Positions 3,859 through 43,764 of a stretch of 45,525 nucleotides of DNA are shown piece after piece. This stretch comes from Bdellovibrionales bacterium (GTDB taxonomy: Bacteria > Bdellovibrionota > Bdellovibrionia > Bdellovibrionales > UBA1609). The position numbers and the translations under genes are program-made. Position 1 is the stretch's first letter, and every line of letters begins with the position of its first letter. The notes beneath the pieces are model-generated. The model did not search any database. It saw nothing but the letters and a program-made list of their open reading frames with translations, and was not told where the DNA came from. The stretch is from assembly GCA_041690295.1 (NCBI GenBank), contig JAWLHR010000023.1, forward strand, positions 1 to 45,525, written 5' to 3'.

Positions 3859-3873
3859 GGGGCAAATTACCCC
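3859..3873. promoter_or_regulatory. Palindromic candidate enhancer (UAS) GGGGCAAATTACCCC
   Basis: Near-identical to the reverse complement of 15058-15072. Centre is 49 bp upstream of the sigma54 -24 GG. Confidence 0.6.
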
Positions 3874-3913
3874 CGATTGATGCGTGATATCGCCTGATCA
3901 CGCGGTTCGTTTT

Positions 3914-3929
3914 TGGCACCACTCTTGCT
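3914..3929 (+). promoter_or_regulatory. Sigma54 promoter TGGCACCACTCTTGCT
   Basis: Perfect TGGCAC-N5-TTGC consensus upstream of the RR-HPF-hyp-SDR operon. Confidence 0.85.
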
Positions 3930-3960
3930 CAATTCAAACGCCAAGAAGGGTTTATCATTT

Positions 3961-4410
3961 ATGATGACAACGACTTTTACTGAAACGGCGAAAGGCCGGT
4001 CTCTTCGGCTTTCGCAGCTGCCTAAATCACTTTTAATTATAGAAGATGATCTCTCGGTGATTGAGTATTTTGAAGCTGTCCTCGATCACTTGCGCCCGGG
4101 TCTCGACTTTGATTATGCGACGAGCGCCGAAGAAGCCATGGAGCTGATTCGGAGCCGGGGCAGAATCGGTGAAGAGCCACCTTACAGCCTCGTGATCGCG
4201 GACATTTTTTTAGACGGTGACATGACGGGATTTGATTCTTGGCTGGAGTGCTCGAAAGAGTTTCCGGACATGCCATTCGTGATCACGTCGTCCTTATCTC
4301 TTGATCGATATCTGGCGATCCTCAGCGGGTTTGATAATTGCCCCACATTCCTGCCCAAACCGCTGACGGTGGGACGCTGCAAGGCCGTAATTGAAGAGTA
4401 TTTAACTTAA
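3961..4410 (+). CDS. Single-domain response regulator (REC)
   Basis: LLIIEDD, LVIADIFL (phosphoacceptor D), VITSS and FLPKP. Confidence 0.9.
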   Translation: MMTTTFTETAKGRSLRLSQLPKSLLIIEDDLSVIEYFEAVLDHLRPGLDFDYATSAEEAMELIRSRGRIGEEPPYSLVIADIFLDGDMTGFDSWLECSKEFPDMPFVITSSLSLDRYLAILSGFDNCPTFLPKPLTVGRCKAVIEEYLT

Positions 4411-4434
4411 ATTTAACGACATTAAGGAGACACC

Positions 4435-4773
4435 ATGACAGCCCGATTCGTATCGCAGGACCTGGAATGGACTGAGTCAATGAAAGAACATGTTCGCCAG
4501 AAAATCATCTACCCGTTGGAAAAATACTTCGCGAACGAAAACTTCCATATCGCCATCCACCTCGATGCGGACCGAAAGCGCATGGACAATCGCAAGCCGT
4601 ATTACGAAATGTGGGCGGTCTTGCAAACCTTTGATGGGCGAAAAGGTCAGGTGATCCGGCGCCAGGGTGAGGACTTTTGGGCTCTGACCAATGAACTTTC
4701 CGCCTGCATGCGATCACAGCTGGCGAAGCAAAAAAATAATAAAAGGGTGAGAGTCGAAGAGAGGTACGCATGA
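4435..4773 (+). CDS. HPF/RaiA-like ribosome-associated protein (divergent)
   Basis: QDLEWTESMKEHVRQKI...LEKYF and EDFWALTNELS..M..QL.K resemble the sigma54 modulation/HPF fold. AAGGAG SD. Confidence 0.75.
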   Translation: MTARFVSQDLEWTESMKEHVRQKIIYPLEKYFANENFHIAIHLDADRKRMDNRKPYYEMWAVLQTFDGRKGQVIRRQGEDFWALTNELSACMRSQLAKQKNNKRVRVEERYA

Positions 4774-4982
4774 AGTCGATCTTCGTCTTACTTTCCGCGA
4801 TCCATTTCATCGTGGAATGGATCACCACTTTGATCCTGGCTCCCCTGATCATCTTTACCGCGTTGGGACTCGTTCTGATGAGCCTTTACTTGGGTCGGAA
4901 AATGCGAAATTCCGCCTTGCACCTTCATGCTCATTGGCGGGCCGCTTCGCGAGGATTGGAAGTTCAGGGTCACGTGGTATGA
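4770..4982 (+). CDS. Small membrane hypothetical protein
   Basis: Hydrophobic N-terminal half. ATGA overlaps with both neighbours. Confidence 0.7.
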   Translation: MKSIFVLLSAIHFIVEWITTLILAPLIIFTALGLVLMSLYLGRKMRNSALHLHAHWRAASRGLEVQGHVV

Positions 4983-5893
4983 AGGTTATTTTGATCACCG
5001 GCGCGTCAACCGGAATCGGGTTGGCCACCGCTGAACAATTACTTTCTGACGGAAACTTCGTCATACTGACGGCGCGCAAGGAATCGCTTGGCCGATTGAG
5101 TGGAACGGAGTTTCTTCGCAAATACCCCAATCATTGGGTGCGCCCCCTGGATGTGCGGGATTCCACCGAGCGACAGCGATTGATGAATGACATTGAACGG
5201 GATCTCTCAAAGCTCGACGTGTTGATCAATAATGCCGCCGTCATATACCGCGCGCCGATCGAGTGCGCCTACGATTTTGAATGTCGCGAACAAATGTTGG
5301 TGAATTTTCACGCGCCTTTGGAGCTGATCAAGGCCGCGGTTGGCCTCATGAGGAAAACAGGCGGCGGACATATTATCAATGTTTCGTCCGCGGCCGGATT
5401 CCTGGCGATTCCGACCATGGGTCTTTATGCGGCATCGAAGCACGCGTTGGAAGCCGCCAGCGAGGCGCTTTACCATGAACTCAAAGATCAGGGGATCAAA
5501 GTGACTTTGATCGAACCGGGATTTATCTCATCCGACTCTTACTTGAAAGCCCGGCTGAGCCTGGCCTTGGATCGCGGTAATAATACAAACGCTCAGTCCT
5601 ATACGTCGTTGAGCAACACCATCACCTGTCTGATCGATCGCGCCAGCCGCTGGACCCACGCCACGCCGGAGATGGTGGCGGTGACGATCAAAAAGGTCAT
5701 TGCCATGAAACGTCCTCCGTTGCGTAAACCAGTAACATTAGATGCCAAGGTCTTCGCGCTTTTGAAACGGTTTTTACCTGGCCGCCTTTATGACGGTCTT
5801 ATCGAATATTGTTTGAAATGCATTCACAAACAGCTGACGAACGCTAATCAAAAACCGGCGCCGAATGCTGGCCAGGTTCCTCTTCAATTTTAG
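4979..5893 (+). CDS. SDR family NAD(P)-dependent oxidoreductase
   Basis: TGASTGIG, NNAA and YAASK motifs. True start is ATG 4979. Confidence 0.92.
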   Translation: MKVILITGASTGIGLATAEQLLSDGNFVILTARKESLGRLSGTEFLRKYPNHWVRPLDVRDSTERQRLMNDIERDLSKLDVLINNAAVIYRAPIECAYDFECREQMLVNFHAPLELIKAAVGLMRKTGGGHIINVSSAAGFLAIPTMGLYAASKHALEAASEALYHELKDQGIKVTLIEPGFISSDSYLKARLSLALDRGNNTNAQSYTSLSNTITCLIDRASRWTHATPEMVAVTIKKVIAMKRPPLRKPVTLDAKVFALLKRFLPGRLYDGLIEYCLKCIHKQLTNANQKPAPNAGQVPLQF

Positions 5894-6530
5894 CGCCGGG
5901 AACCATGTATTTCGTCATATTTGGAATGTCCTGGCGCAAATAATTGCTCTCAACGAAATCCCAATTGATGTAATCCCAAACACCATCGACAAATCGCGGT
6001 CTCTCGTTCTTGTAATCCAGATAATAGGCATGCTCCCAGAGATCGCATGTCCAAAGCGGCCGGACACGGTCATAGCGTAAGGGGTTTCCGGCATTTTGCG
6101 TGGAGATGAACTCCATCTGGTTTTTACCGTTAACGGTCAACCAGACATAACCCGATCCGAACACACCGGAGGCCACTTCAATGAACGCCTTCTGCATTCC
6201 CTCGATTCCGCCGAAACTCGCGTCGATGGCCTGATTGAACTCGCCACCGTCATCCGGCATAAGCGATTTCGACGTTTCACACAGCCCGAACCAAAAAAAC
6301 GTGTGATTCCAAGCCTGAGCGGCGTTGTTATAAAGAACGCCATCGTGATTTTGAATGATCCGTTCCAGAGGCCCCTCGTCGGATCCCATTTTTTCCAGTA
6401 TTTGGTTGGTCTTCTCGATGTAGCCTTTATGGTGGGCCCAATAGTGGTACCGCACGGTTTGAGCCGACATAAACGGCTCAAGCGCGTCTTCTTTCCAGGG
6501 AAGGGCCGGTAATTGAAACTTCACCCGCAT
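5844..6530 (-). CDS. sodB: Superoxide dismutase, Fe/Mn family (Fe-type signature)
   Basis: LP.LPW..DALEP, HYWAHH, NNAAQAWNHTFFW and DLWEHAYYLDY. Confidence 0.92.
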   Translation of the reverse strand: MRVKFQLPALPWKEDALEPFMSAQTVRYHYWAHHKGYIEKTNQILEKMGSDEGPLERIIQNHDGVLYNNAAQAWNHTFFWFGLCETSKSLMPDDGGEFNQAIDASFGGIEGMQKAFIEVASGVFGSGYVWLTVNGKNQMEFISTQNAGNPLRYDRVRPLWTCDLWEHAYYLDYKNERPRFVDGVWDYINWDFVESNYLRQDIPNMTKYMVPGAKIEEEPGQHSAPVFD

Positions 6531-6535
6531 TGATC

Positions 6536-6814
6536 TTATGACCTGCGACGGAAAAGAGTGGCGCCTAAAAACATTCCCAGTGCCAAACCGCCCAGCGCCG
6601 TTTGAACCGGATACTCACGCGCCATTTTCAGCGTTTTCCGCCGGGCCTGCGACATCAGGTCGTTTCCAGCCTCGACCGCGCGGTGGTAAACTTTCTGTGC
6701 CGTTTCCGCGAGCCGGCTCGCGCTGGCGCTGGCTTCGTCAGTCACTCTTTCCGCGGTCCGCTTCCATTTGCCGTTGCCGCCGGTTTCCGTGGGGTTTCCC
6801 AATCCTTCTTGCAT
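6536..6814 (-). CDS. ElaB/YqjD/DUF883-like tail-anchored protein
   Basis: Helical N-terminus, then REYPVQTALGGLALGMFLGATLFRRR. GGAG SD. Confidence 0.8.
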   Translation of the reverse strand: MQEGLGNPTETGGNGKWKRTAERVTDEASASASRLAETAQKVYHRAVEAGNDLMSQARRKTLKMAREYPVQTALGGLALGMFLGATLFRRRS

Positions 6815-6862
6815 CTTGCTCTCCCTTCGTTGACCAAAGTTAAAGATTTATCTCCATATTCA

Positions 6863-6878
6863 AGCAAATGCCTGGCCA
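6863..6878 (-). promoter_or_regulatory. Sigma54 promoter TGGCCAGGCATTTGCT
   Basis: GG-N10-GC with TTGC, upstream of the DUF883-sod unit. Confidence 0.75.
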
Positions 6879-7040
6879 GCAGGATCGCCGCGCAAAACGC
6901 AGCAGGAACTGCGTTTGTTTACAAACGTTCAAGGTTGACTCGTGGAGCGTGTGATTCTTGAACTTTAAGTGGACTTTCCGCGACTCTCGCAGTAGATATG
7001 CCGTAAAACAATTTTAATCTTTATAGAGGTAGAGGTTAAT

Positions 7041-7328
7041 TTGGAGACCGAAATTTCTATTCCTGACGAAATCCGCAAGAAATACCTCCAGAGGAGAAGA
7101 AACGATTTGGTCGCCTTGAAGGCTTCACTCTCCACCCGGTCCCTTGAAGAATTTAAACGCATCGGCCATCAGCTCAAGGGCAATGCCGCGTCGTTTGGAT
7201 ATACGGACCTGGAAAAAATAGCGATCGCCATGGAAGCCGCGGGATTACGCGGCGACACTTTCGAAGCCGGAAAACAGCTGGAACTCTTCGAAAAGTGGAT
7301 TCAAGACCACCCTATTGAGGGAGAGTAG
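7041..7328 (+). CDS. Hpt (histidine phosphotransfer) domain protein
   Basis: RIGHQLKGNAASFG motif. TTG start with GAGG SD. Confidence 0.9.
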   Translation: METEISIPDEIRKKYLQRRRNDLVALKASLSTRSLEEFKRIGHQLKGNAASFGYTDLEKIAIAMEAAGLRGDTFEAGKQLELFEKWIQDHPIEGE

Positions 7329-8751
7329 CTTCCGACCTTTGTGACATTTCTTTGACTCGCCGGTAGAGCGTCTTGCGGTCCACACCCAGTTCTTTGGCGG
7401 TGCGGTCCTTGGCTCCATTATTTATCTTCAAGGCGAATTCAATGTACTTATTGATCAATTCATTGAGCGGAAGAATTTTGGTGTCGGGAACGACAAACTT
7501 GCCCTGGCTTTCATAAAAATTGTCGCTCGTCGTGGATCCCAACTGATCCGCCATTCGCATTTCTTCGTCGAATCTGAGGTCAGGAAGGTCAATCAACGTG
7601 CCTTTGCACAAGACCACCGCGCGCTCGATGACATTTTCCAATTCACGAACGTTACCCCGCCAGGGATTTTTCAACAGATACTCGGCCGCGCTCTTGGTGA
7701 AGCCCTTCACATTAACGCCGTTCAAAGCGGCGTGCTTCTTAAGGAAGAACTCCGAAAGCGGCATAATGTCTTCCTGACGCTCCCGTAACGGGGGAAGCAC
7801 GATGGGGATCACGTTCAGACGGAAGAACAAGTCCTCGCGGAATCGGCCTTCATTCACTTCCTGGCGCAGGTTCTTGTGAGTCGCTGAAATCACCCGAACG
7901 TCGATCGATCGCACCTGGTTTTCACCGATCCGCTTGATCTTACGTTCCTGTAAAACCCGCAAAAGTTTAGCCTGAAGAGGAAGACTTAAATCACCGATCT
8001 CATCCAAAAAGAGTGTTCCGCCGTTGGCTTCCTCGAACAAACCAATACGCTTTTCAATGGCTCCCGTAAAAGAACCCTTGGCGTAACCGAAAAGTTCGGC
8101 TTCGAGCAGGTTCTCGGGAATCGCGGAACAGTTGATCGCGACGAACGGTCCTTTCTTACGTGAACCGAATCCATGAATGGCCCGGGCGATGACTTCTTTT
8201 CCTGATCCACTTTCACCCATGATCAGAACGTGTGCCGCGCTATTGGCCACTCGCTTCGCCAGATCCAAAGCGCGCAAAAATTTCGTGCTTTTACCGATGA
8301 TTCCGTGGGCGGCCCCAAGATCATTCGTGCTTGAGACCACGGCCCGAAGAGTTTGATTCTCTTCTTTGATACGGCTGAAGTGTAAAGCGCGCTCGACAGA
8401 GACTTGCAGCTGCGGGAAGTGAAGCGGTTTCACCACAAAGTCGTACGCTCCCGCTTCAATCGCCTTTAACGCGACCTCAACTCCGCGCTGGGCGGTCATG
8501 ATGATAATGGGAATTCCAATTCCTTTTTCCTGAAGCGCGACCGTAAGATCCACTCCGCTCATCTTCGGCAGTCGAAGATCGGAGATGATCACATCACAGA
8601 AATTACTTTTTTCGGTTATCTGCTTGTAGGCTTCCTCGGCATCATCAAACGCGACGACCTCAAAGCCTTTGGGACGAAAAAAACCGATGACAATATCCTG
8701 GATATCCAGATCGTCATCGATGACCACCAGCCTCGGTTTACTCTCAATCAT
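7312..8751 (-). CDS. Sigma54-dependent response regulator, NtrC/AtoC family (REC-AAA+-HTH)
   Basis: REC (IISDLRLP), Walker A GESGSGKE, GSFTGA loop, LFLDEIG, WRGNVREL and Fis-type HTH. Confidence 0.95.
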   Translation of the reverse strand: MIESKPRLVVIDDDLDIQDIVIGFFRPKGFEVVAFDDAEEAYKQITEKSNFCDVIISDLRLPKMSGVDLTVALQEKGIGIPIIIMTAQRGVEVALKAIEAGAYDFVVKPLHFPQLQVSVERALHFSRIKEENQTLRAVVSSTNDLGAAHGIIGKSTKFLRALDLAKRVANSAAHVLIMGESGSGKEVIARAIHGFGSRKKGPFVAINCSAIPENLLEAELFGYAKGSFTGAIEKRIGLFEEANGGTLFLDEIGDLSLPLQAKLLRVLQERKIKRIGENQVRSIDVRVISATHKNLRQEVNEGRFREDLFFRLNVIPIVLPPLRERQEDIMPLSEFFLKKHAALNGVNVKGFTKSAAEYLLKNPWRGNVRELENVIERAVVLCKGTLIDLPDLRFDEEMRMADQLGSTTSDNFYESQGKFVVPDTKILPLNELINKYIEFALKINNGAKDRTAKELGVDRKTLYRRVKEMSQRSEATLPQ

Positions 8752-8794
8752 GGGCCCTGACTTAACATAGGTTCCTAATTTCCCCAAGCCAAAA

Positions 8795-8809
8795 GTGGAA
8801 CTTTTCCCC
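8795..8809. promoter_or_regulatory. Candidate UAS GTGGAACTTTTCCCC (half-site also at 8771-8785)
   Basis: One mismatch to GGGG-N7-CCCC. Centre is 69 bp upstream of the sigma54 GG at 8871. Lies just upstream of the activator gene on the other strand. Confidence 0.5.
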
Positions 8810-8869
8810 TGCATTTTTCGAAAAAGTCCTGAAATGGGAAATAGGGGCTTTTAGCCTCGTATCGACGTT

Positions 8870-8885
8870 AGGAACGGGAGTTGCT
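8870..8885 (+). promoter_or_regulatory. Sigma54 promoter AGGAACGGGAGTTGCT
   Basis: GG-N10-GC with TTGC, upstream of the DUF1328 gene. Confidence 0.75.
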
Positions 8886-8928
8886 CTATGGATCTGCAGT
8901 ACGCAGACAACTAGGAGGCCAAATTCTA

Positions 8929-9111
8929 ATGTTGAGAGCGGCGGTACTATTTTTCGTTTTAGGGCTCATATCGATTTTATTGGGTGCCGGCAATGTGGCC
9001 GGGATCTCCCTGGAAATAGGCCAAACGCTCTTAACGGTGTTTTTGATTCTGGCGGTGATCAGTCTGGTTGGCAGTTTGATTACGGGCAAGAAGCCATCAC
9101 CGCTACCATGA
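8929..9111 (+). CDS. DUF1328 (YtjA-like) small membrane protein
   Basis: MLRAAVLFFVLGLISILLG.G.VAG.S.EIG..L..VFLILAVIS pattern. AGGAGG SD. Confidence 0.9.
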   Translation: MLRAAVLFFVLGLISILLGAGNVAGISLEIGQTLLTVFLILAVISLVGSLITGKKPSPLP

Positions 9112-9156
9112 ATTGTAAATATTATTAGTTTTCTCCCCCACCAATCATCCCATCCC

Positions 9157-9193
9157 AAGAGCTCAGGTTAAATAACCTGAGCTCTTTCTTTTT
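9157..9193 (+). terminator. Intrinsic terminator, perfect 14-bp inverted repeat plus U tract
   Basis: AAGAGCTCAGGTTA-AA-TAACCTGAGCTCTT-TCTTTTT between convergent genes. Confidence 0.85.
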
Positions 9194-9204
9194 GTCCTCG
9201 CCGC

Positions 9205-10569
9205 TTACATCGAAGTCGTCGCGGTTTCGGGGATATGGGGGGTCAGGATGATATCGACCCTGCGGTTTTCCGCCCGGCCTTTTGCGGTTTTGTTATTGCT
9301 GATGGGTTTTTCGAAGCCATACCCGACGGCGGTGATCTTATCCGCCTGAACACCGTTCTTTTGCAGGTAATCCGCCACCACCTCGGCCCGCTTCTGCGAA
9401 AGCGGCTGATTTATGGAGACGCTTCCCGTTGAATCGGTGTGACCTTCAACCACGATCTGCTCAGGATGGATATCCTCAGCCACCCGTTTCAGTTTAGCGA
9501 GTAAAGCCACTGATTCCGCGGGAAGATCCGCTCGTCCGACAGGAAAGTGCATGGCCTTCAGCCGAATGAGGAGCCGGTCGCCTTCCCGGTAAACCTCGGC
9601 CTCATCACGGGCGAACTCCTGCCTTGCCCGATTCATGGCCTTTTCCAAAGCCTGCGAAGCCCTGGCTTTTCTTAGCTCCTGCTCCTGCATGGAGACGATC
9701 TCCGATCCGGCTTCCCTTTGAGCTTCCGTGGCCTTGAGCTGCTGACTAAGCCCCGCGATCGCGCGTTCTTGATTGACAAGGCGAATGGCCACGTCCTCGG
9801 CCACATGATCGCGTCCCGAGCGTGTTTTTTGAATCACGGCCAATAGGAACTCCGAAGCATTGTTGGCTCTCGTGACGGCCGGGAGAAAAGCTTTGGGATC
9901 ATGTCGGTGAGCGGTGATCATGTTTTCCGCGTTTCGCAACTCGATCTCGGCATGGCGCAAGCTTCGCGGCGAGAATTTGGCCGCGCGTTTCTTTTTGGCG
10001 GTTTCAATTCGCCAACGGGCGTTTTGCAGATGTTGGCTTTGTATCGCGGCCAGTTCGAGATCCAAGTAACGGGCTTGCAATCGCGCGAATTCATCCGATG
10101 TCACTCTTCCAGATGCGGCAAGGGACCTGAACTCATCATCAGCTTCGCGGAATGTGCGTCGGGGTTTTGGATAATTTCTCACTCCGGCATTCAATGCCGC
10201 CCGGCGGGCATCCAACACACCTTCAAAACGGGGCTCCAGCTCATCCGCCCGCCTTCGAGCCTCGATCAGATGTCCCATTCCGTCACCGAGGGTATTGAGA
10301 ACTTTTTCGCTTTTCACTCCACGGTTCATTTGCTTTTTGGCTTGTTCAAACCGCTTTTCAGCCATGCGAAAATGGTCGTTGGCAAGAACATCGAACTGCC
10401 GTTCATATCCTTCCTGAATTCCGGCCTTTAGTTGCTCAGCCACTTCGGAAGGCGGCGTGGATGCCGGATATTGCACTCTCTTACTGGACGTCGTCGCGCA
10501 GGACACCACGAGTACCGTCGCCGCCAGTAACGGAGTGAATTGTTTCATCTTCAAACCGTTCCTCATCAT
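9205..10569 (-). CDS. OmpA-family lipoprotein with long helical/coiled-coil N-terminal region
   Basis: Lipobox VVSC. C-terminal VEGHTDSTG...LSQKRA..V...GYG...P...N.T..GRAENRRV. Confidence 0.92.
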   Translation of the reverse strand: MMRNGLKMKQFTPLLAATVLVVSCATTSSKRVQYPASTPPSEVAEQLKAGIQEGYERQFDVLANDHFRMAEKRFEQAKKQMNRGVKSEKVLNTLGDGMGHLIEARRRADELEPRFEGVLDARRAALNAGVRNYPKPRRTFREADDEFRSLAASGRVTSDEFARLQARYLDLELAAIQSQHLQNARWRIETAKKKRAAKFSPRSLRHAEIELRNAENMITAHRHDPKAFLPAVTRANNASEFLLAVIQKTRSGRDHVAEDVAIRLVNQERAIAGLSQQLKATEAQREAGSEIVSMQEQELRKARASQALEKAMNRARQEFARDEAEVYREGDRLLIRLKAMHFPVGRADLPAESVALLAKLKRVAEDIHPEQIVVEGHTDSTGSVSINQPLSQKRAEVVADYLQKNGVQADKITAVGYGFEKPISNNKTAKGRAENRRVDIILTPHIPETATTSM

Positions 10570-10713
10570 AAAATCTCCTTTTGTTTCAGCATAAGGATAA
10601 AACGGGCCAATCCACCTTAAACCGCAACATCCGTACCACGAGCAGGTCCGCTCTAAGCGCTTCCATATTTAAACGGAGTCCATCCATGCCATGCACGGTG
10701 GAAGGGTGGGACA

Positions 10714-10729
10714 AGGAATAGAAGTTGCT
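10714..10729 (+). promoter_or_regulatory. Sigma54 promoter AGGAATAGAAGTTGCT
   Basis: GG-N10-GC with TTGC, followed by AAGGAG SD and ATG 10754. Confidence 0.7.
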
Positions 10730-10753
10730 GCGCTTCATTTGAAAGGAGTCGAA

Positions 10754-10915
10754 ATGCAGAAACCGCAGTCTGGTGATCAAGATCCCAAACGGCCGCCCGA
10801 GCACGATCCGGAACCGCCGCATAAGGCTCCACCAGAGCACATTCCAGAACCACCGCAGGAAGCCCCTCCGGAAACCCAACCGGAACCGCCACCCACCAAA
10901 CCCACGTTGGAATGA
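10754..10915 (+). CDS. 53-aa Pro/Glu-rich disordered small protein with three 12-aa repeats
   Basis: RPPEHDPEPPHK / APPEHIPEPPQE / APPETQPEPPPT. Has its own SD and sigma54 promoter. Confidence 0.7.
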   Translation: MQKPQSGDQDPKRPPEHDPEPPHKAPPEHIPEPPQEAPPETQPEPPPTKPTLE

Positions 10916-10919
10916 GATT

Positions 10920-11402
10920 TCAATGCATTTGTGTCAGCTGACTAAGAATCGCGATGTGTCTTTCTTGTCTGGGAATCAATTTGGTCTTGATCAGATTCAG
11001 GTCCGCCAAATTTAAATTTTCTTTGGCTAAAGCCTCATAAAGCGTTAATCCGCGCTCCTCACCTTGTTTCAGAGCGTTCAATGTGGTCGCTTCACCGAGC
11101 AGTTTCCCCGCGCCGATGATGGCTCTCACGACCGCGCCCCAAACCCCAGGGCCCTCGTCAGGAAAAGCGCCTTCGTGGGAAATCATGTTCTTCAAAGTGC
11201 GAACGCTATCCACATGATCATTGCGAATCGCGGACAACCGATTGATGGTGGTTTCGTCCGTGATCCTTTGGAGAGCCTGATCATAGGCCTCAACAGCCGC
11301 CAACTCTCCACGCAAAACTTTGTTCAAATGGTCCACGATACGCGAACCCGGCCTATAGGACATCACCGCCGAGGCGAACTCAGAAGGCATCTCGTAATTC
11401 AT
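10920..11402 (-). CDS. PA2169/DUF2383 family ferritin-like four-helix bundle protein
   Basis: LN..LRGELAAVEAY.QA...H...L and GEERG...Y...IPRQERH. Confidence 0.85.
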   Translation of the reverse strand: MNYEMPSEFASAVMSYRPGSRIVDHLNKVLRGELAAVEAYDQALQRITDETTINRLSAIRNDHVDSVRTLKNMISHEGAFPDEGPGVWGAVVRAIIGAGKLLGEATTLNALKQGEERGLTLYEALAKENLNLADLNLIKTKLIPRQERHIAILSQLTQMH

Positions 11403-11664
11403 TTGGTTCCCTCCGCTGAACCCGGCGTTTCCTTCGGATGTCCTGTGAAATGCCGGTCACCACCAACAAACTAAAGGCCGAGAAAACGAACAATACGAAC
11501 ATGACCTGACCCAGAAAGATCGCCGTATTCGTACGTAAAAACTGGGCAAGAAGCAACGAGAGTGAGGCAAGCCCCAGCAGCATCGCCGCGATCACCACAT
11601 TTCGTAACGTGTTGTATTTGGCATCCTTAAACATGTTTTTGCCGTTTGCTGCTCGGCCGATCAT
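11380..11664 (-). CDS. Small two-TM membrane protein
   Basis: Two hydrophobic segments. GGAGG SD. Downstream of a sigma54 promoter. Confidence 0.7.
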   Translation of the reverse strand: MIGRAANGKNMFKDAKYNTLRNVVIAAMLLGLASLSLLLAQFLRTNTAIFLGQVMFVLFVFSAFSLLVVTGISQDIRRKRRVQRREPNELRDAF

Positions 11665-11692
11665 AAAACGACCTCCTCCACTTACGACTCAA

Positions 11693-11708
11693 AGCATGAA
11701 GTCTGCCA
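11693..11708 (-). promoter_or_regulatory. Sigma54 promoter TGGCAGACTTCATGCT
   Basis: GG-N10-GC upstream of the membrane protein and ferritin-like genes. Confidence 0.7.
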
Positions 11709-11718
11709 AGGTACAGAT

Positions 11719-14478
11719 CTAATTAACGGTTCCCTCCTGGATTTCATGGGGAACATTTGGACCTGGTAGGATTTTACGTTGTTGCCCCAAGTACATCGCG
11801 ACCATTTCAATGAAAGCTTTTTCTGAAATGGGCTTCGTGATTTGACCGTCACAACCCGCTTGCAAGCAGCTTTCTTTTTCTTCTCGCATGGCATGCGCGG
11901 TTAGAGCCACGATCGTGGTCATACAGCCCTGCGCTCTGAGCTGTCGCGTGGCCTCTTTCCCGTCCACACCTGGGATTTGAATGTCCATTAAGATCAAATC
12001 GTACTTCCCGGTCGCTCCTTCTTTGATGGCATCAATCCCATTGCTGACCACCGTGACTTCCGCACCCGCGGTTCGCAAGAAGAATGAGAAGATCTCCTGG
12101 TTATCCTCGGAGTCTTCGACCAGCAAAACTCTGGCGCCATCCAAGTTTATGTCATGGCGCAAGTTCAACTCCACGGTTGGATGAGGCTTAAGGTCGAGTT
12201 TGTCGCTCCACTGACAGCCTCGCAGATCGCCCGTGGGTATCACGATCTCAAACACCGTGCCCACATCCTTGATCGAACGAATCAGGCGCAGGCTGCCGCC
12301 CAATTCGGTGGCGAGACGGCTTGATAACGCCAATCCCAATCCGGATCCGCCGAACTTACGCGTGGTCGTTTCATCCCCTTGGGAAAAGGGCTTGAAGAGA
12401 TGAAGCTGAGCCTCTTCGGAAATACCGACACCGGTGTCCTCAACGTAGAAGATCAAATCACCCGAGTTCTCGTTTTGACGTTGGCAGCTGACCGCCATAG
12501 TCACTGATCCATTATTAGTGAACTTGATCGCATTACCGATGATATTGAGCAAAATCTGTTTCAAGCGAACATCATCCACGAAAATATGGCTCGGAAGCTG
12601 GCCGGTGGGGATGATTTCAAACCTGAGGTCTTTTTCATTCGCGCGCATTTCCACAATGGAGTTGATTTCATCCAGCAAAGCCGAGAGACGCACGCGACGA
12701 TGATGAATCTGCAGTTTACCCGCTTCGATCTTCGAAAGATCCAGGACGTCATCAATCAGCCGGGTCAGATATTCGGAGTTCTTTCGGATGGAGTTCGCAA
12801 TGCTCAGCCGTCGGCTTTCGGGAATTTGTTTTCCGGCAAGCATTTCCGAAAATCCCATCAAAGCGTTCAAAGGCGTTCGGATCTCGTGGCTCATATTGGC
12901 CAGGAACGCCGACTTCGAGCGGCTCGATGTTTGGGCTGTTTCGATAAGAACGATCTTATCGATACCGAGTCCCAAGTGGGAAATCGTGTTATCCAACAGT
13001 TCTTTTTGCAACTTCGTGAACTTGGTTTTGTGATTGCCGGCCACGAACAAGAACTGATCCGTCCGCTGCCGGCTGGGAATCACCGCCACGATCCAGTCTT
13101 CAGCCTTATGGAAAGGTCCAAGCAAACGGTTCAGACTCGGACCCATGATTTGCTGTTCCTTGGTGAGCATCAACCGGTTACACATCACCTGTTTTAAAAA
13201 ATTGTGGGTGATCTGGTCGGGAATCAAAGAGATATTGCCGACACCCGCCCAGCTGTGCAGGCGCAGGGAAGAATGCGCCGATGAACTCGAGACGTAAAGA
13301 TATCCAAAATCAATGTCCGCTTCGCGAATTATGGAAAGAAAGTGCGCCAAGAGGCTTTCTTCGTTCAGCTCTTCCGCCACTGACCGCGAGAACCGGCTCA
13401 AGAGTTCCAGATTCTTGGCTTGGAGATTGATCAACTCCTGGTCCGCTTCCAGCGATTCCTTACGTTGAGTCTCCGCTGCCAGACGCCGTCGACCGAGTTG
13501 CAGTGACGCAAAAACACTCAGGGCGATAATGAAGGTCGAAACACCCGCCAGCGGCGGAAAATAGCGTTCCACCGTGGTCAGGTAATTACGAGTCGGTTCA
13601 AACTGAATGCGAAAATCGTGATCAAAAATGCGGAATCTTCTGGTCACTTTTCGATCCGCGAGTCTCACGTTTTGTGGCAGGTTGAAGCGCGTGTAGACAC
13701 GCTGCTCACTACCACTCGACCTTGGGGCGCTAAACAGAGTCCAGTCCGCTTTCTCCAATCTTAAAGAAGGCATTCCGAACGCTTCGTGAAAGAAGTCCTG
13801 AATCCGAAAAGTGACCTGAAGCCATTTCATGCCCGGTTTCAGTACCACGGGATCAACCACGTTCGGGGTGAGTGACAATATGATGTGATACACCCTCGAG
13901 TTCCAGCTCAACGGATTTTTAATGGGACCGATCATCACCGGTCGTCCCGTGGCGAAGGCTTTTTCAATCAGGGGGATGCGATCTTGATAAGATAAGGCGT
14001 TTATCCCAAGAAACTGGCGAGTCGATGAATCCATCGGCTCATGAACCATCAACGATGCGAAAATCGGAGCGTTGGAAGATGGCCACAAACGCGCATGAGG
14101 ATAAATCTTTTTGAGATCCCTTGTTACGCGGGCTTTATCTTCACGTTTGAAAATTTGAACGTAACCGATGCTGCGAAGGCCGCGATGACGCTGGCTGATT
14201 TCGGCGTGATCGAGCATATTTCGAAAAAATTCCGCCGAAGGTTCGCCGCCCGAATAGATCGCCGCGCGCGTGTGGTAAAGCAAATCGGAATAGGATTCAA
14301 GCCGGTTGGTTATGCTTCGTTCGATCCGGTCCAAGTCGTGCATTAGGCGAGAATCGATTTGCCGTTCAACTCCCGTGAGAACCGCGAAGTAAACACCTAG
14401 TGAAATCGCCACACAGAACAGCGCGCCTAAAACCGCTCTTCTATCCACATGACGAAAGATCACCCTAAACCACTTCAT
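11719..14478 (-). CDS. Hybrid sensor histidine kinase: TM-CHASE-TM-GAF-like-HisKA-HATPase-REC
   Basis: Periplasmic CHASE-like region (HRGLRSIGY, EP.....LG). H-box FLANMSHEIRTPLN, N-box NIIGNAIKFT, DTGVG and GSGLGL. REC with LILMDIQIP. Confidence 0.93.
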   Translation of the reverse strand: MKWFRVIFRHVDRRAVLGALFCVAISLGVYFAVLTGVERQIDSRLMHDLDRIERSITNRLESYSDLLYHTRAAIYSGGEPSAEFFRNMLDHAEISQRHRGLRSIGYVQIFKREDKARVTRDLKKIYPHARLWPSSNAPIFASLMVHEPMDSSTRQFLGINALSYQDRIPLIEKAFATGRPVMIGPIKNPLSWNSRVYHIILSLTPNVVDPVVLKPGMKWLQVTFRIQDFFHEAFGMPSLRLEKADWTLFSAPRSSGSEQRVYTRFNLPQNVRLADRKVTRRFRIFDHDFRIQFEPTRNYLTTVERYFPPLAGVSTFIIALSVFASLQLGRRRLAAETQRKESLEADQELINLQAKNLELLSRFSRSVAEELNEESLLAHFLSIIREADIDFGYLYVSSSSAHSSLRLHSWAGVGNISLIPDQITHNFLKQVMCNRLMLTKEQQIMGPSLNRLLGPFHKAEDWIVAVIPSRQRTDQFLFVAGNHKTKFTKLQKELLDNTISHLGLGIDKIVLIETAQTSSRSKSAFLANMSHEIRTPLNALMGFSEMLAGKQIPESRRLSIANSIRKNSEYLTRLIDDVLDLSKIEAGKLQIHHRRVRLSALLDEINSIVEMRANEKDLRFEIIPTGQLPSHIFVDDVRLKQILLNIIGNAIKFTNNGSVTMAVSCQRQNENSGDLIFYVEDTGVGISEEAQLHLFKPFSQGDETTTRKFGGSGLGLALSSRLATELGGSLRLIRSIKDVGTVFEIVIPTGDLRGCQWSDKLDLKPHPTVELNLRHDINLDGARVLLVEDSEDNQEIFSFFLRTAGAEVTVVSNGIDAIKEGATGKYDLILMDIQIPGVDGKEATRQLRAQGCMTTIVALTAHAMREEKESCLQAGCDGQITKPISEKAFIEMVAMYLGQQRKILPGPNVPHEIQEGTVN

Positions 14479-14622
14479 TCATTCGCCCCTGGACGATTTA
14501 CCCTAATGAATTTGATAATGGCGCCCCCCTCATAGATCAATGGCAAATTCCACAATGGAAAATGATTCCATGACGGATTGAAAGACTTTATGCCCGTCAT
14601 AAAATCACCAAATTCAGATCGT

Positions 14623-14943
14623 TTACTTAGCTTGGGTCTCTTCCTCGGGCGCCTCGGACTCATGGCGCAGCTTTCGCCAGCCGTCGAGACGGGATTTGAA
14701 AATATTATTGAGCCCCGCTTTTATGGCGTTGTACGAGCGGCTTTCCAAGCTCTCTTTAAAGCGCATGGAGGCCGAGTTCAGTGTGACATCCAAGCAGAGC
14801 TTCCCGCCAACCGACAATAAACAGAAGTTTAAAAAGGCGTCGGAAGGGCAGCGTTCAACTAAACTTTCAAAGAATACAATCAAATCCGAGATCATCGCGC
14901 TCGGTAACGAGCTGTCGATATAATAATGTAAATCCATAAACAA
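14623..14943 (-). CDS. Hypothetical protein, possibly a remote HPF/RaiA-like fold
   Basis: GGAGG SD with TTG start. Helix-PSDA-strands-helix ending in RL..W.K.R. First gene after a sigma54 promoter. Confidence 0.65.
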   Translation of the reverse strand: MFMDLHYYIDSSLPSAMISDLIVFFESLVERCPSDAFLNFCLLSVGGKLCLDVTLNSASMRFKESLESRSYNAIKAGLNNIFKSRLDGWRKLRHESEAPEEETQAK

Positions 14944-14980
14944 ACCCTCCTTAACACCATCAGCTTAACCAATCAGATTG

Positions 14981-14996
14981 AGCAATCCGGGGGCCA
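14981..14996 (-). promoter_or_regulatory. Sigma54 promoter TGGCCCCCGGATTGCT
   Basis: GG-N10-GC with TTGC, pointing toward 14943 and the hybrid kinase. Confidence 0.75.
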
Positions 14997-15057
14997 TTGG
15001 TGAAAAGTCCGAGCTGTTATTAAATGAGTCCTTTTGGGTGCAACGTGGAACCACCAT

Positions 15058-15072
15058 GGGGAATTTTGCCCC
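15058..15072. promoter_or_regulatory. Palindromic candidate UAS GGGGAATTTTGCCCC shared by divergent sigma54 promoters
   Basis: Centre is 49 bp from the GG at 15114 and 70 bp from the GG at 14995. Matches 3859-3873. Confidence 0.6.
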
Positions 15073-15112
15073 GCTTCTTTAATCCAAGATTGCCGCAAAC
15101 GGGTCTTTTCTA

Positions 15113-15128
15113 TGGCATGTCCGCTGCA
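15113..15128 (+). promoter_or_regulatory. Sigma54 promoter TGGCATGTCCGCTGCA
   Basis: TGGCA-like -24 and TGCA -12 with exact spacing. Confidence 0.75.
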
Positions 15129-15170
15129 GAATCGGCAGGCATCCAAGTATCAGAAAGTGAGGAGGAACTC

Positions 15171-15698
15171 ATGAGTTTGACTTCAACGACAATGCCTCAG
15201 GTTCCGATCCTGCCGAAAAGTATCATGGCGCAGGACTCGGCGAATTGGCCTGGACACACGATTTTGGTCATCGATGACGACCCCGAGTTCGCAATGGCGC
15301 TCAAAGAACAATTGGAGCGCACGGGAAATTACCGGGTGGATATTGCCTTGGATCCGTTTGAAGGCGCCAACCTCCTCGCCGACCGACGGTTTGACATGGT
15401 GGTGACCGACTGCATGTTGCAAGATTGGGACGGGGTGACCACCCTGGAAAACGCCGATCATCTGATCGATGTGGATCCCACGGTCGTGGACCAATGGAGC
15501 GATCTGACTCCAGTTAACGTTCTCTTCTGCTCAAGCGCACCCATCCGCTTGGTGGATCTGAAACGGGCCGGTAAGCTCAAGCATTTTCGGGTACTTGGTT
15601 TTCTGCCGAAAGTGACCGGGCTGAACTCCATTTGCCGGTCCGTAAGGCAATTGACCGCCAATCACCAGCACACGGCGACCCAAGCATTGACCAACTGA
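15171..15698 (+). CDS. Single-domain response regulator (REC, with insertion)
   Basis: ILVIDDD, VVTDCML and FLPK. GAGGAGG SD before ATG 15171. Confidence 0.85.
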   Translation: MSLTSTTMPQVPILPKSIMAQDSANWPGHTILVIDDDPEFAMALKEQLERTGNYRVDIALDPFEGANLLADRRFDMVVTDCMLQDWDGVTTLENADHLIDVDPTVVDQWSDLTPVNVLFCSSAPIRLVDLKRAGKLKHFRVLGFLPKVTGLNSICRSVRQLTANHQHTATQALTN

Positions 15699-42651: not shown

Positions 42652-42795
42652 GGTATGGGCGTACCCTTATGCCGAAAGAGCGTCAATCACGGAGCCCCAA
42701 GTGACGGAAATTGCCACTCCGCTGGGCTCCCCTTTAGGTTAAATGACTCTCTCCACTGGTCCGTCTTTTGCTCAATTTGGCGCCGGAGGATCCCG

Positions 42796-43764
42796 ATGTT
42801 GTCCGTTTATCGTTTTTCACAGACAGTGGCGATTTCGTCTTTGGCCCTGTTGATCGCGGCCTGCGGGGGCGGTCAGGGTAAACGTGAACGGGTCTCGAAA
42901 GTTTCGCAAGCGAGGCAAAACCAATCCCTCGATTGGTCCAAACAAGACATCTACATGAAATCCGAAGACGGCAAAAAAGCCACTTGCCTGAACGTGAAAA
43001 AGCTCACGGACTTCATCGCCCGAATCAACAAAGAAACCGTGACCGTGCACACCTTTGACTTGGATTTCGTGGTGCGATCGGGTGTGGATGCCAAATCCTC
43101 ATTCTCTAGCGCGGACAAGAGCTTGAACGCCCAGAAAGCCCAGTATTTTTTCACCGGTCCCGAGGTGAGAAAGCGCCTGCTGGCTCCGATTCTGGAAAAC
43201 CGCCTGGGGAGTGAATTGGTTCATGTCTCTCAAATCGGACAATTCCTGAATGTCGGTGATCAATCGAAGTGCGATGCGGTTTCATTTTTGGAAGGCGATC
43301 AAAACGTTGAATATAAGATCGTGGATCAGGACTCCCGTTCGATCCGCCTGAGCCGCCGCAACGGTGGCGCTGAATTCCGTATTTATCAAATCGGCTCGCG
43401 TGGGGAGCTTTTTATCACTCAAATTTACCAAGACTCGAACGTTAAGCCTTGTGGTGAAGCCACCGGCACCAATCATTGGATCCGCCGCATTTACAGCATC
43501 AGTGTCGCGGAGAACCTGACCCGATTGCCGATCAGCACTAATCTCGCGAGCCTCTTTGATCAATTCGTGTGGAGTTCCGAGTCGATGAAAAAACAATTGA
43601 GCCGCGGAAGCGCCAATTCGGATTCCAACACGAACGCGAACGCCACCCGCCGCTCAAGCGGCATCGGGCGCGTTCAAATCGGACTCGGTGATTACTTCTA
43701 CATCCGCAACCTCATTAACGAGGACGGCGGTAAGTTAAAAGAGCTGAAGTGCTCTAATCTTTAG
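42796..43764 (+). CDS. Hypothetical lipoprotein
   Basis: GGAGG SD before ATG 42796. Lipobox IAAC. Confidence 0.8.
   Translation: MLSVYRFSQTVAISSLALLIAACGGGQGKRERVSKVSQARQNQSLDWSKQDIYMKSEDGKKATCLNVKKLTDFIARINKETVTVHTFDLDFVVRSGVDAKSSFSSADKSLNAQKAQYFFTGPEVRKRLLAPILENRLGSELVHVSQIGQFLNVGDQSKCDAVSFLEGDQNVEYKIVDQDSRSIRLSRRNGGAEFRIYQIGSRGELFITQIYQDSNVKPCGEATGTNHWIRRIYSISVAENLTRLPISTNLASLFDQFVWSSESMKKQLSRGSANSDSNTNANATRRSSGIGRVQIGLGDYFYIRNLINEDGGKLKELKCSNL

Follow-up and report, generated by a model that had tools for sequence, protein, structure and literature searches.

The window analysed here is a stretch of 45,525 nucleotides (contig JAWLHR010000023.1, called C23) of the 2.88-Mb genome of a Bdellovibrionales bacterium (completeness 99.9%; labelled G000 in cross-genome comparisons). 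Between its positions 3,859 and 15,698 lies a cluster, examined here as the candidate hub of a sigma-54-dependent general stress response, that encodes a phosphorelay, a sigma-54 activator and a series of mostly small proteins behind predicted sigma-54 promoters (Table 1). Domain searches confirmed the relay parts named in the initial annotation, namely a CHASE-HisKA-HATPase-REC hybrid kinase, a free histidine phosphotransfer protein (Hpt), a REC-AAA+-HTH activator with a GSFTGA loop and two receiver-only proteins (RR1 and RR2), as well as the labels HPF-like (S30AE), DUF1328, DUF2383 ferritin-like, Fe/Mn superoxide dismutase (SOD) and short-chain dehydrogenase (SDR). The label ElaB/DUF883 fared less well: none of nine orthologs of the 92-residue protein has a Pfam match, and its sole likeness is a profile comparison with two DUF883_C-bearing proteins (probability 86). 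In close relatives a CsbD gene precedes this gene. The SOD gene, at the end of the same sigma-54 operon, is the only SOD match by blastp in the genome. A synteny comparison across Bdellovibrionota relatives, proposed with the initial annotation, recovered the full gene order in two genomes (G005, G007) and a portion of it in two more (G002, G013).

Comparisons were made with 41 genomes of relatives and a wider phylum set of 201 genomes, which are non-independent through kinship in every cross-genome count. The closest relatives of the activator (78-85% identical) are found in Bdellovibrionales or Pseudobdellovibrionaceae. Gene starts come from a simple in-house caller and can be off; two gene calls in the locus were corrected by hand before unit starts and 12-kb windows were counted.

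The genome encodes one full copy of RpoN, 12 full sigma-54 activators and four sigma-70-family factors: RpoD, an RpoH-like factor, FliA and one ECF factor, whose gene is located between SLT and aminopeptidase genes. None of the sigma genes reached the RpoS or SigB cut-offs in a model search of this 99.9% complete genome. The genome has no match over the cut-off to the PRK09191 model, which we take to represent PhyR, and a dedicated stress sigma of the sigma-70 family (accompanied by PhyR/NepR in the case of EcfG) was not found in it. No promoter pattern of a sigma-70-family stress sigma was found at the eight locus units with sigma-54 boxes, and a sigma-70 consensus scan of the locus gave 6 sites where 8.6 were expected. 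The sole ECF gene (L140:1814-2419, contig C9) has one of the strongest sigma-54 boxes 179 bp upstream, a gap that leaves room for a small RNA or peptide.

Table 1. Genes and predicted regulatory elements of the cluster, in window positions (aa, amino acids; ORF, open reading frame; TM, transmembrane segment; boxes are named by the position of their 5' end)
Feature	Position	Strand	Remarks
Palindrome GGGGCAAATTACCCC	3859..3873		predicted activator site, 55 bp upstream of box 3914; score 17.3
Sigma-54 box TGGCACCACTCTTGCT	3914..3929	+	predicted promoter of RR1-HPF-small-SDR operon
RR1, receiver-only, 149 aa	3961..4410	+	acidic pocket, Asp, Lys; Pfam Response_reg below cut-off, E 2e-5
HPF/S30AE-like, 112 aa	4435..4773	+	Pfam S30AE 28.7 bits, cut-off 23.7; TIGR00741 below cut-off
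Small membrane protein, 70 aa	4770..4982	+	no family
Short-chain dehydrogenase (SDR)	4979..5893	+	Pfam adh_short
Fe/Mn superoxide dismutase	5844..6530	-	6 bp after DUF883-like gene
92-aa protein, DUF883/ElaB-like	6536..6814	-	C-terminal glycine-rich helix; label without Pfam confirmation
Sigma-54 box TGGCCAGGCATTTGCT	6863..6878	-	box retained in 11/11 relatives; no full palindrome upstream here
Free Hpt, 95 aa, His43	7041..7328	+	convergent with activator; without sigma-54 box
REC-AAA+-HTH sigma-54 activator	7312..8751	-	likely start ATG 8751, 479 aa; frame open from 8814
TTGGGG-N17-TA element with extended TG	8759..8787	-	ends 7 bp before ATG 8751; 12-genome alignment
Palindrome GTGGAACTTTTCCCC	8795..8809		75 bp upstream of box 8870; score 18.1
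Second, weaker palindrome	8844..8858		near box 8870; score 12.1; conservation partial
Sigma-54 box AGGAACGGGAGTTGCT	8870..8885	+	predicted promoter of DUF1328; retained in 15/16 relatives
DUF1328 (YtjA-like) small membrane protein	8929..9111	+	13-pair hairpin 9157-9186 downstream
OmpA-domain protein, 454 aa	9205..10569	-	
Sigma-54 box TGGTACGGATGTTGCG	10623..10638	-	retained in 2/3 relatives
Sigma-54 box AGGAATAGAAGTTGCT	10714..10729	+	upstream of Pro-rich peptide ORF 10755
Pro-rich peptide, 52 aa	10755..10915	+	similar ~40-aa Pro/Glu-rich peptides in two relatives
DUF2383 (PA2169-like) ferritin-like	10920..11402	-	Pfam 39.5 bits, cut-off 30.8
Two-helix membrane protein, 94 aa	11380..11664	-	no family
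Sigma-54 box TGGCAGACTTCATGCT	11693..11708	-	weaker palindrome 11748-11762
Hybrid kinase, 919 aa	11719..14478	-	TM-CHASE-TM-HisKA-HATPase-REC; without box at own start
Weaker palindrome	11748-11762		54 bp upstream of box 11708, within kinase 3' end
104-aa protein, predicted HPF/RaiA fold	14623..14937	-	no sequence family; net acidic
Sigma-54 box TGGCCCCCGGATTGCT	14981..14996	-	retained in 3/3 relatives; strongest box, ahead of ORF 14623-14937
Palindrome GGGGAATTTTGCCCC	15058..15072		common to divergent boxes 14996 (-76) and 15113 (-55); score 19.3
Sigma-54 box TGGCATGTCCGCTGCA	15113..15128	+	retained in 3/3 relatives; upstream of RR2
RR2, receiver-only, 175 aa	15171..15698	+	Asp, Lys present

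Sigma-54 boxes and a palindrome in helical phase

The seven -24/-12 motifs reported in the initial annotation are all present with exact GG-N10-GC spacing, and they point into units as claimed, at distances of 41-59 bp from the unit start (64 bp for box 6878-). An eighth box (TGGTACGGATGTTGCG, 10638-), overlooked before, is directed into the OmpA-domain gene. All eight have TGGCAC/TTGC-like flanks and are oriented into a unit, and the three unit starts of the locus without a box are those of Hpt, the activator and the kinase.

A raw consensus count over the whole window with two mismatches allowed (45 found, 41 +/- 6.8 expected) is at the level of chance, so the signal of the boxes resides in where they lie and which way they point. 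When the matrix was trained on the source genome with the locus left out, and the zone 35-80 bp upstream of unit starts was searched, boxes were found at eight of the 11 unit starts of the locus versus 100 of 1652 other unit starts (wrong-strand count, 17); the untrained consensus (two mismatches or fewer) gives 7/11 versus 66/1652. The genome-wide matrix scan that had been suggested as a check makes the locus the densest 12-kb stretch of the genome, with eight boxes versus four in the runner-up. A motif density equal to background, named beforehand as one result that would refute the proposal, is seen in the raw count of the whole window but not at unit starts, where boxes are enriched. Among orthologous promoters, 41 of 44 have kept the box.

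Another element shared by these promoters is a 15-bp palindrome, G[GAT]GG[AC]A-N3-T[GT]CC[CTA]C, which was found de novo in 34 of 41 promoters of relatives, the window being excluded. Relative to the box it is located at -52 to -57, -64 to -66, -71 to -77 or -86, positions one helical turn apart, and it lies in helical phase upstream of five locus boxes. The conservation and co-occurrence of the palindrome suggest that it is probably bound by the local activator. The site at 3859..3873 is retained in three of three relatives at -53/-54; that at 8795..8809, which lies 8 bp from the predicted -35 element of the activator gene, is nearly invariant in 12 genomes; and that at 15058..15072, also kept in three of three relatives, has the highest score among the promoter-linked sites of the genome. 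With a matrix built from the relatives only, a palindrome score of at least 14 is reached at six of 227 gene-linked boxes of the source genome versus none of 1342 gene-less boxes. Four of the six belong to the locus (3914, 8870, 14996 and 15113), and two precede genes of no known family on contigs C28 and C11. A strict pattern that combines palindrome and box has 34 matches in 18 of the 41 genomes, and the reversed control has none. A few kilobases from the target on C11 are cas1 and cas2 genes of a CRISPR (clustered regularly interspaced short palindromic repeat) system (L061:138-1214).

Activator clades, the phosphorelay and the history of the cluster

The activator possesses the receiver aspartate, Walker A and B motifs, arginine finger and C-terminal helix-turn-helix (HTH) of NtrC-type proteins. 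Its loop is GSFTGA, which alternates with GAFTGA among orthologs, and its recognition helix is DRKTLYRR. In a quick tree of 55 activators, built without bootstrap, it belongs to a clade of 22 (support 99) with the helix DRKTLY[RK]R; the helix of a sister clade of seven is almost identical. The nearest paralog in the source genome (contig C21, L100:7409-8809), 46% identical to the local activator, falls into an outer group whose helix is NRRTLYRK. Promoters in the neighbourhood of outer-group activators, ahead of CBS, Usp and HPF genes, have the palindrome G[ATG]GACA-N3-TGTC[TAC]C in 12 of 14 cases; the sites of the locus score 17-19 with the local matrix versus 6-12 with that of the outer group. 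The outer palindrome fits an HPF gene on contig C13, and it likely marks a separate regulon that extends to this gene and, on contig C2, to a small gene in front of a COX1-family operon. Outer-clade loci (L100 on C21; L104, L110, L106) contain a PAS kinase and CBS, Usp and HPF neighbours.

The activator is not LuxO by the NCBIfam model (363.8 bits, cut-off 800), and a plasmid collection contains no match to it at E 1e-100. Its HTH end is matched in 28 of the 201 phylum genomes; most of the 16 loci read from these have CsbD, DUF1328, DUF883, hemerythrin, Hpt or receiver-only genes with boxes, and the system appears to be widespread but patchy in the phylum. The TTGGGG-N17-TA element is predicted to be a sigma-70-type, possibly leaderless promoter of the activator, whose ATG at 8751 is invariant in the 12-genome alignment, and this promoter would be open to autoregulation. 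Four genomes have receiver-less activators of the same clade (316-330 residues; L182, L183, L184 and L113), which are possibly constitutive or differently controlled. No Hpt was found near the three that were tested, and at three of these loci a gene that is small or of the DUF883 type, preceded by box and palindrome, lies about 700 bp away.

The phosphorylatable residues of the relay are present: the histidine and receiver aspartate of the hybrid kinase, and His43 of Hpt. An Hpt gene lies within 3 kb of the activator gene in 24 of 36 loci of relatives; among the 12 others, three have receiver-less activators and two end at a contig edge. All eight sister-clade loci have an adjacent Hpt, which in six is fused to a hybrid kinase. 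Judged by this gene content, the activator-Hpt core is conserved across the phylum. A complex model of the receiver with Hpt scored 0.56 (best control 0.00), with contact agreement of at least 88% and partner pLDDT of at least 86. Of 157 solved complexes, 116 attain the mark applied to such models, as do two of 215 mismatches; just 18 of the 157 and both mismatches do so at 0.60 or below. The model lends the pairing weak support, and its score probably reflects likeness to solved Hpt-receiver pairs. An ECF-like pattern upstream of hpt was dropped as a candidate promoter, being absent from three relatives.

The source genome encodes six hybrid kinases (the CHASE kinase and five more) and two free Hpts. 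Two of the five are found near KGG genes: an RsbRD_N kinase behind a box beside one, and another kinase near the second. The CHASE kinase gene adjoins an hpt gene in two other families (G033, G036). The feedback proposed in the initial annotation, with kinase and receivers behind sigma-54 promoters, stands for both receiver-only genes, which follow promoters with box and palindrome, but not as such for the kinase: its start has no box, and so sigma-54 could reach it only by read-through from box 14996- across ORF 14623-14937 and the gap that follows. This gap is 144 bp here and about 270 bp in two close relatives, and neither a sigma-54 box nor a terminator-like hairpin was found in it. A conserved block, GGAATCATTTTCC...TTGA (window 14500-14570), precedes the kinase in G000, G005 and G007 and is a possible promoter or regulator site.

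The present cluster is likely the product of a merger, reconstructed from gene neighbourhoods. RR1 adjoins the sister activator in all eight sister loci, accompanied by the HPF gene in four and SDR in two, and the RR1 operon of these loci has the same palindrome wherever it was scored. The sister clade was not found in the source genome, and the second-best activators of G000, G002, G005, G007 and G013 are of the outer type, which is the reason for placing the merger after loss of the sister. The sublineage would have lost the sister activator and kept the RR1-HPF-SDR operon beside the remaining one, whose recognition helix is nearly that of the sister. The sister loci themselves (L101, L102, L103, L105, L107, L109, L111, L129) consist of a HisKA-HATPase-REC-Hpt kinase or a free Hpt together with a divergent RR1-HPF-SDR operon.

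Targets within and beyond the locus

Away from the activator, matches to the strict pattern precede 20 first genes: three for hemerythrin, two for DUF1328, two for GFO oxidoreductase, one each for CsbD, Ku (with LigD), DUF4383, a hybrid kinase, a glycosyltransferase and a repeat protein, and seven without a family. Flagellar or nitrogen genes are absent from these 20. The hemerythrin, GFO and DUF4383 genes are presumably stress-regulon members.

Starting from a gene family instead of the motif, 41 DUF1328 copies were collected, and 20 were left after removal of 17 beside the activator, three found through the motif and one at a contig edge. A box is found ahead of 15 of the 20, at 47-152 bp, and the best palindrome is in helical phase at 14 of the 15 boxes versus 55% of 220 control boxes. 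Of 25 genomes that have the local or the sister clade, 24 encode DUF1328; of the 16 that have neither, two do. The strict pattern is distributed similarly (17/25 versus 1/16, or 11/25 versus 1/16 once activator-adjacent matches are removed); 10 of the 16 clade-less genomes simply have no activator match at E 1e-100. Elsewhere in the source genome, boxes with weak or no palindromes precede two KGG genes and genes for BON, OsmC, a pyridoxamine-oxidase-like protein and a DAO-Rieske oxidoreductase. The description of the system as self-contained fails, because targets are scattered over other contigs and six hybrid kinases could feed Hpt; there are also two free Hpts, and in other genomes the RR-HPF-SDR operon accompanies the sister activator.

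By family assignment, the targets belong to general-stress-type families, several of which, according to the initial annotation, are under RpoS or ECF sigma factors in other bacteria. DUF1328, CsbD and KGG proteins are described as RpoS-controlled in Salmonella (PMC5437024), and csbD, osmC and ku-ligD are listed as EcfG targets in Sphingopyxis (PMC7083833). The motif evidence would place marker genes such as CsbD, DUF1328, KGG, OsmC and Ku-LigD under one regulator. In the source genome, Ku and LigD are encoded by an operon (C14:35704-40122) that begins with genes for a 57-residue peptide, a membrane protein and a Cys-rich protein of 79 residues, and its upstream element, GG-N10-GA, is one base off a sigma-54 box. 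A hemerythrin gene (L142:1480-2010, contig C5) follows an otherwise perfect-looking box with a spacer one base short, GG-N9-GC, which suggests a decayed promoter or an assembly indel.

Two proteins of the locus resemble the ribosome hibernation factors HPF/RaiA, which occupy the tRNA sites of the 30S subunit by means of a basic surface; both are far diverged. ORF 4435 exceeds the S30AE cut-off of Pfam, and a sequence search of solved structures with it gave no HPF match. ORF 14623 has the beta-alpha-beta-beta-beta-alpha fold of HPF/RaiA by structure prediction (pLDDT 85.7): HPF structures are its top Foldseek matches (E 1e-4), with Z 10.8 and a root-mean-square deviation of 2.3 over 93 aligned residues, at 6-17% identity to solved HPFs. 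A profile comparison between the two families found nothing, and a search of the ESM Atlas with ORF 14623 gave one unnamed cluster at 0.76, useful as a lead only. ORF 4435 has 21 basic and 16 acidic residues, and ORF 14623 has 12 and 15; since the latter is net acidic, ribosome binding is doubtful and its function may differ. At least six HPF-like or HPF-fold genes are present in the genome (C2, C13, C21, C1 and window 4435 and 14623; five by Pfam search and one by fold), at least four of them in units with a sigma-54 box.

A candidate general stress response and its alternatives

These observations make it probable that the cluster is the hub of a predicted sigma-54-dependent general-stress regulon, whose Hpt-fed activator would bind the palindrome. 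The earlier proposal that a relay runs the stress programme is supported in part, by the boxes, the palindrome, the tie between activator and Hpt, the stress-type families and the failure to find an RpoS, SigB or PhyR-type protein; its self-contained character falls, and the proposed feedback holds for the receivers but only in part for the kinase. In the proposed mechanism, phosphate from at least one hybrid kinase would travel by way of the free Hpt to the activator encoded next to it. The activator would then bind the palindrome and open sigma-54 promoters of stress-type genes in the locus and elsewhere. Hpt and the activator, made from promoters of other types, would await the signal, and the palindrome beside the predicted -35 element of the activator may allow autoregulation. 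As many as six hybrid kinases may feed the relay, with the CHASE kinase as an exchangeable member of this set. The activator would also induce RR1 and RR2, and these may serve as sinks or hubs for phosphate, by which the signal is weakened or diverted. Survival without growth may be what the outputs prepare the cell for: SOD, two proteins of HPF fold, and ferritin-like, DUF1328, DUF883-like and OmpA-domain proteins, with CsbD, Ku-LigD and hemerythrin added in relatives.

Several observations weigh against this interpretation. The family labels of the targets are the whole basis of the stress role. Because orthologs of these very promoters served to train the palindrome matrix, its success in the source genome signifies conservation and not independent recovery, and three of the eight boxes (6878, 10638, 10714) have no good palindrome there. 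In the phylum set the strict composite pattern occurs in just 14 of 201 genomes (the control has three matches), and several activator loci surveyed have boxes with weak or absent palindromes. Sigma-54 boxes precede about 6% of all unit starts of the source genome, which has 12 activators, so some boxes of the locus may answer to another of them. The palindromes of the local and outer clades overlap and several sites score with both matrices, and the activator tree was a quick one without bootstrap. The N-terminal half of the kinase is found in just eight of 41 genomes and beside the Hpt-activator pair in five; at the same place, G005 and G013 carry a kinase that lacks CHASE. In the source genome, no box exceeds the threshold at the unit starts of Ku-LigD, a hemerythrin, a GFO oxidoreductase and the second of two BON genes, although three of these four are near-misses (GG-N10-GA, a 9-base spacer, weak scores).

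Of the alternatives, the one that survives best retains the activator and promoters but assigns them to a life-cycle programme, such as prey-free existence or envelope remodelling, or to one narrow signal. Membrane, OmpA-domain, beta-barrel and unknown secreted proteins are frequent among the targets, the seven family-less genes among the 20 first genes would suit it, and the Caulobacter relay ShkA-ShpA-TacA, of the same build, is described as driving morphogenesis (PMC7010744); it is nevertheless unlikely, given that the RpoS/EcfG markers CsbD, DUF1328, Ku-LigD, KGG and OsmC recur behind boxes in several families and that no other general-stress sigma was found in the genome. A strictly closed module, in which the CHASE kinase would be the sole input, all parts and targets would lie within 12 kb and the kinase would be under sigma-54 feedback, agrees with the synteny of the entire locus in two relatives, with the kinase adjoining hpt in two other families and with the hairpin-free gap before the kinase. 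Such a module is improbable in view of the satellite targets on other contigs, the five further hybrid kinases (two beside KGG genes), the box-less kinase start and the absence of the CHASE kinase from most activator-bearing relatives. Still less probable is that the boxes are real but driven mainly by the outer-clade paralog on C21, with a minor role for the local activator: the helix of the paralog is similar, and its matrix gives several palindromes of the locus a score of 11-12, but the scores are higher with the local matrix, the palindrome beside the local activator gene is nearly invariant in 12 genomes, and DUF1328 tracks the local clade rather than the outer one. That the motifs arose by chance in a genome where sigma-54 sites abound, as the whole-window count and the choice of the window after the fact might suggest, is scarcely credible beside the top-ranking 12-kb density, the strand bias and the conservation of orthologous promoters.

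The wiring of the general-stress hub proposed here is of a known type, LuxU-LuxO or ShpA-TacA, and its output is what is new. In Vibrio, the hybrid kinases LuxN, LuxQ and CqsS share one free Hpt, LuxU, which serves the REC-AAA+-HTH activator LuxO, and the hpt gene lies beside that of the activator. TacA of Caulobacter is sigma-54-dependent. The present system resembles LuxU-LuxO in its hybrid kinases, free Hpt, sigma-54 activator and adjacent hpt and activator genes, but the targets are stress-type protein genes instead of Qrr RNAs, the site is different and hpt is convergent. LuxU is presented as an Hpt and candidate phosphate donor for LuxO (PMC10162802). In the Caulobacter relay, a hybrid kinase signals through a phosphotransfer protein to a response regulator with a large regulon (PMC7010744); that kinase is switched by cyclic di-GMP and the output is morphogenesis, whereas here a membrane CHASE kinase and stress-type genes are found. 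Receiver-only proteins are part of the circuit, as is described for MrrA (PMC5964349).

What is known of general stress responses in Gram-negative bacteria comes from RpoS and EcfG; the source genome shows neither, yet it carries stress marker genes. The system of the locus is like LuxU-LuxO or ShpA-TacA in wiring and like the RpoS and EcfG regulons in output, but by test it belongs to neither kind. DUF1328/YtjA, CsbD/YjbJ, KGG, OsmC and Ku-LigD are shared with the regulons of RpoS (Salmonella), EcfG-NepR-PhyR (Alphaproteobacteria) and SigB (Bacillus), whereas control is predicted to be exerted here through sigma-54 and an ATP-driven activator, without an anti-sigma switch. On a small scale, a sigma-54 regulator with a general-stress label has been described before: DVU3305 of Desulfovibrio vulgaris, a response regulator annotated 'general stress response, transmembrane transport' (PMC4641369). 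The likeness is one of description: two short operons are given for it, and its description includes no Hpt relay and no CsbD/DUF1328/Ku set; DVU3220 of the same species has a GSFTGA loop and a mapped target (PMC4641369). A full-text search, with subscription papers and supplementary Bdellovibrio expression tables outside its reach, found no literature on the present system, and the main text of a B. bacteriovorus start-site paper does not mention RpoN (PMC3627812). New here are an explicit site with its phasing, a family-first test and a palindrome split between paralog clades, together with a history of merger, an input from many kinases and a further HPF fold.

There is about an even chance that Bdellovibrionota have a fourth type of general stress response, in which sigma-54 would act with an Hpt-fed activator clade, one palindrome, several kinases and its own phosphate sinks, diverged HPF-fold proteins would hibernate prey-free cells, and three activator clades would have split an ancestral palindrome between general-stress and Usp/CBS regulons. 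With the regulator, its likely DNA site, the promoters and the relay named, prey-free survival of these predators becomes directly testable, and single-contig genomes of a neighbouring family that contain the activator clade (G061, G161) may offer an experimental host. The palindrome also allows prediction of stress genes among the many unknown proteins of the phylum. Elsewhere in the window, a gene for a 322-residue protein of no family (42703-43764) has a box at 42757+ and a weak palindrome at -54, and is a possible further target.

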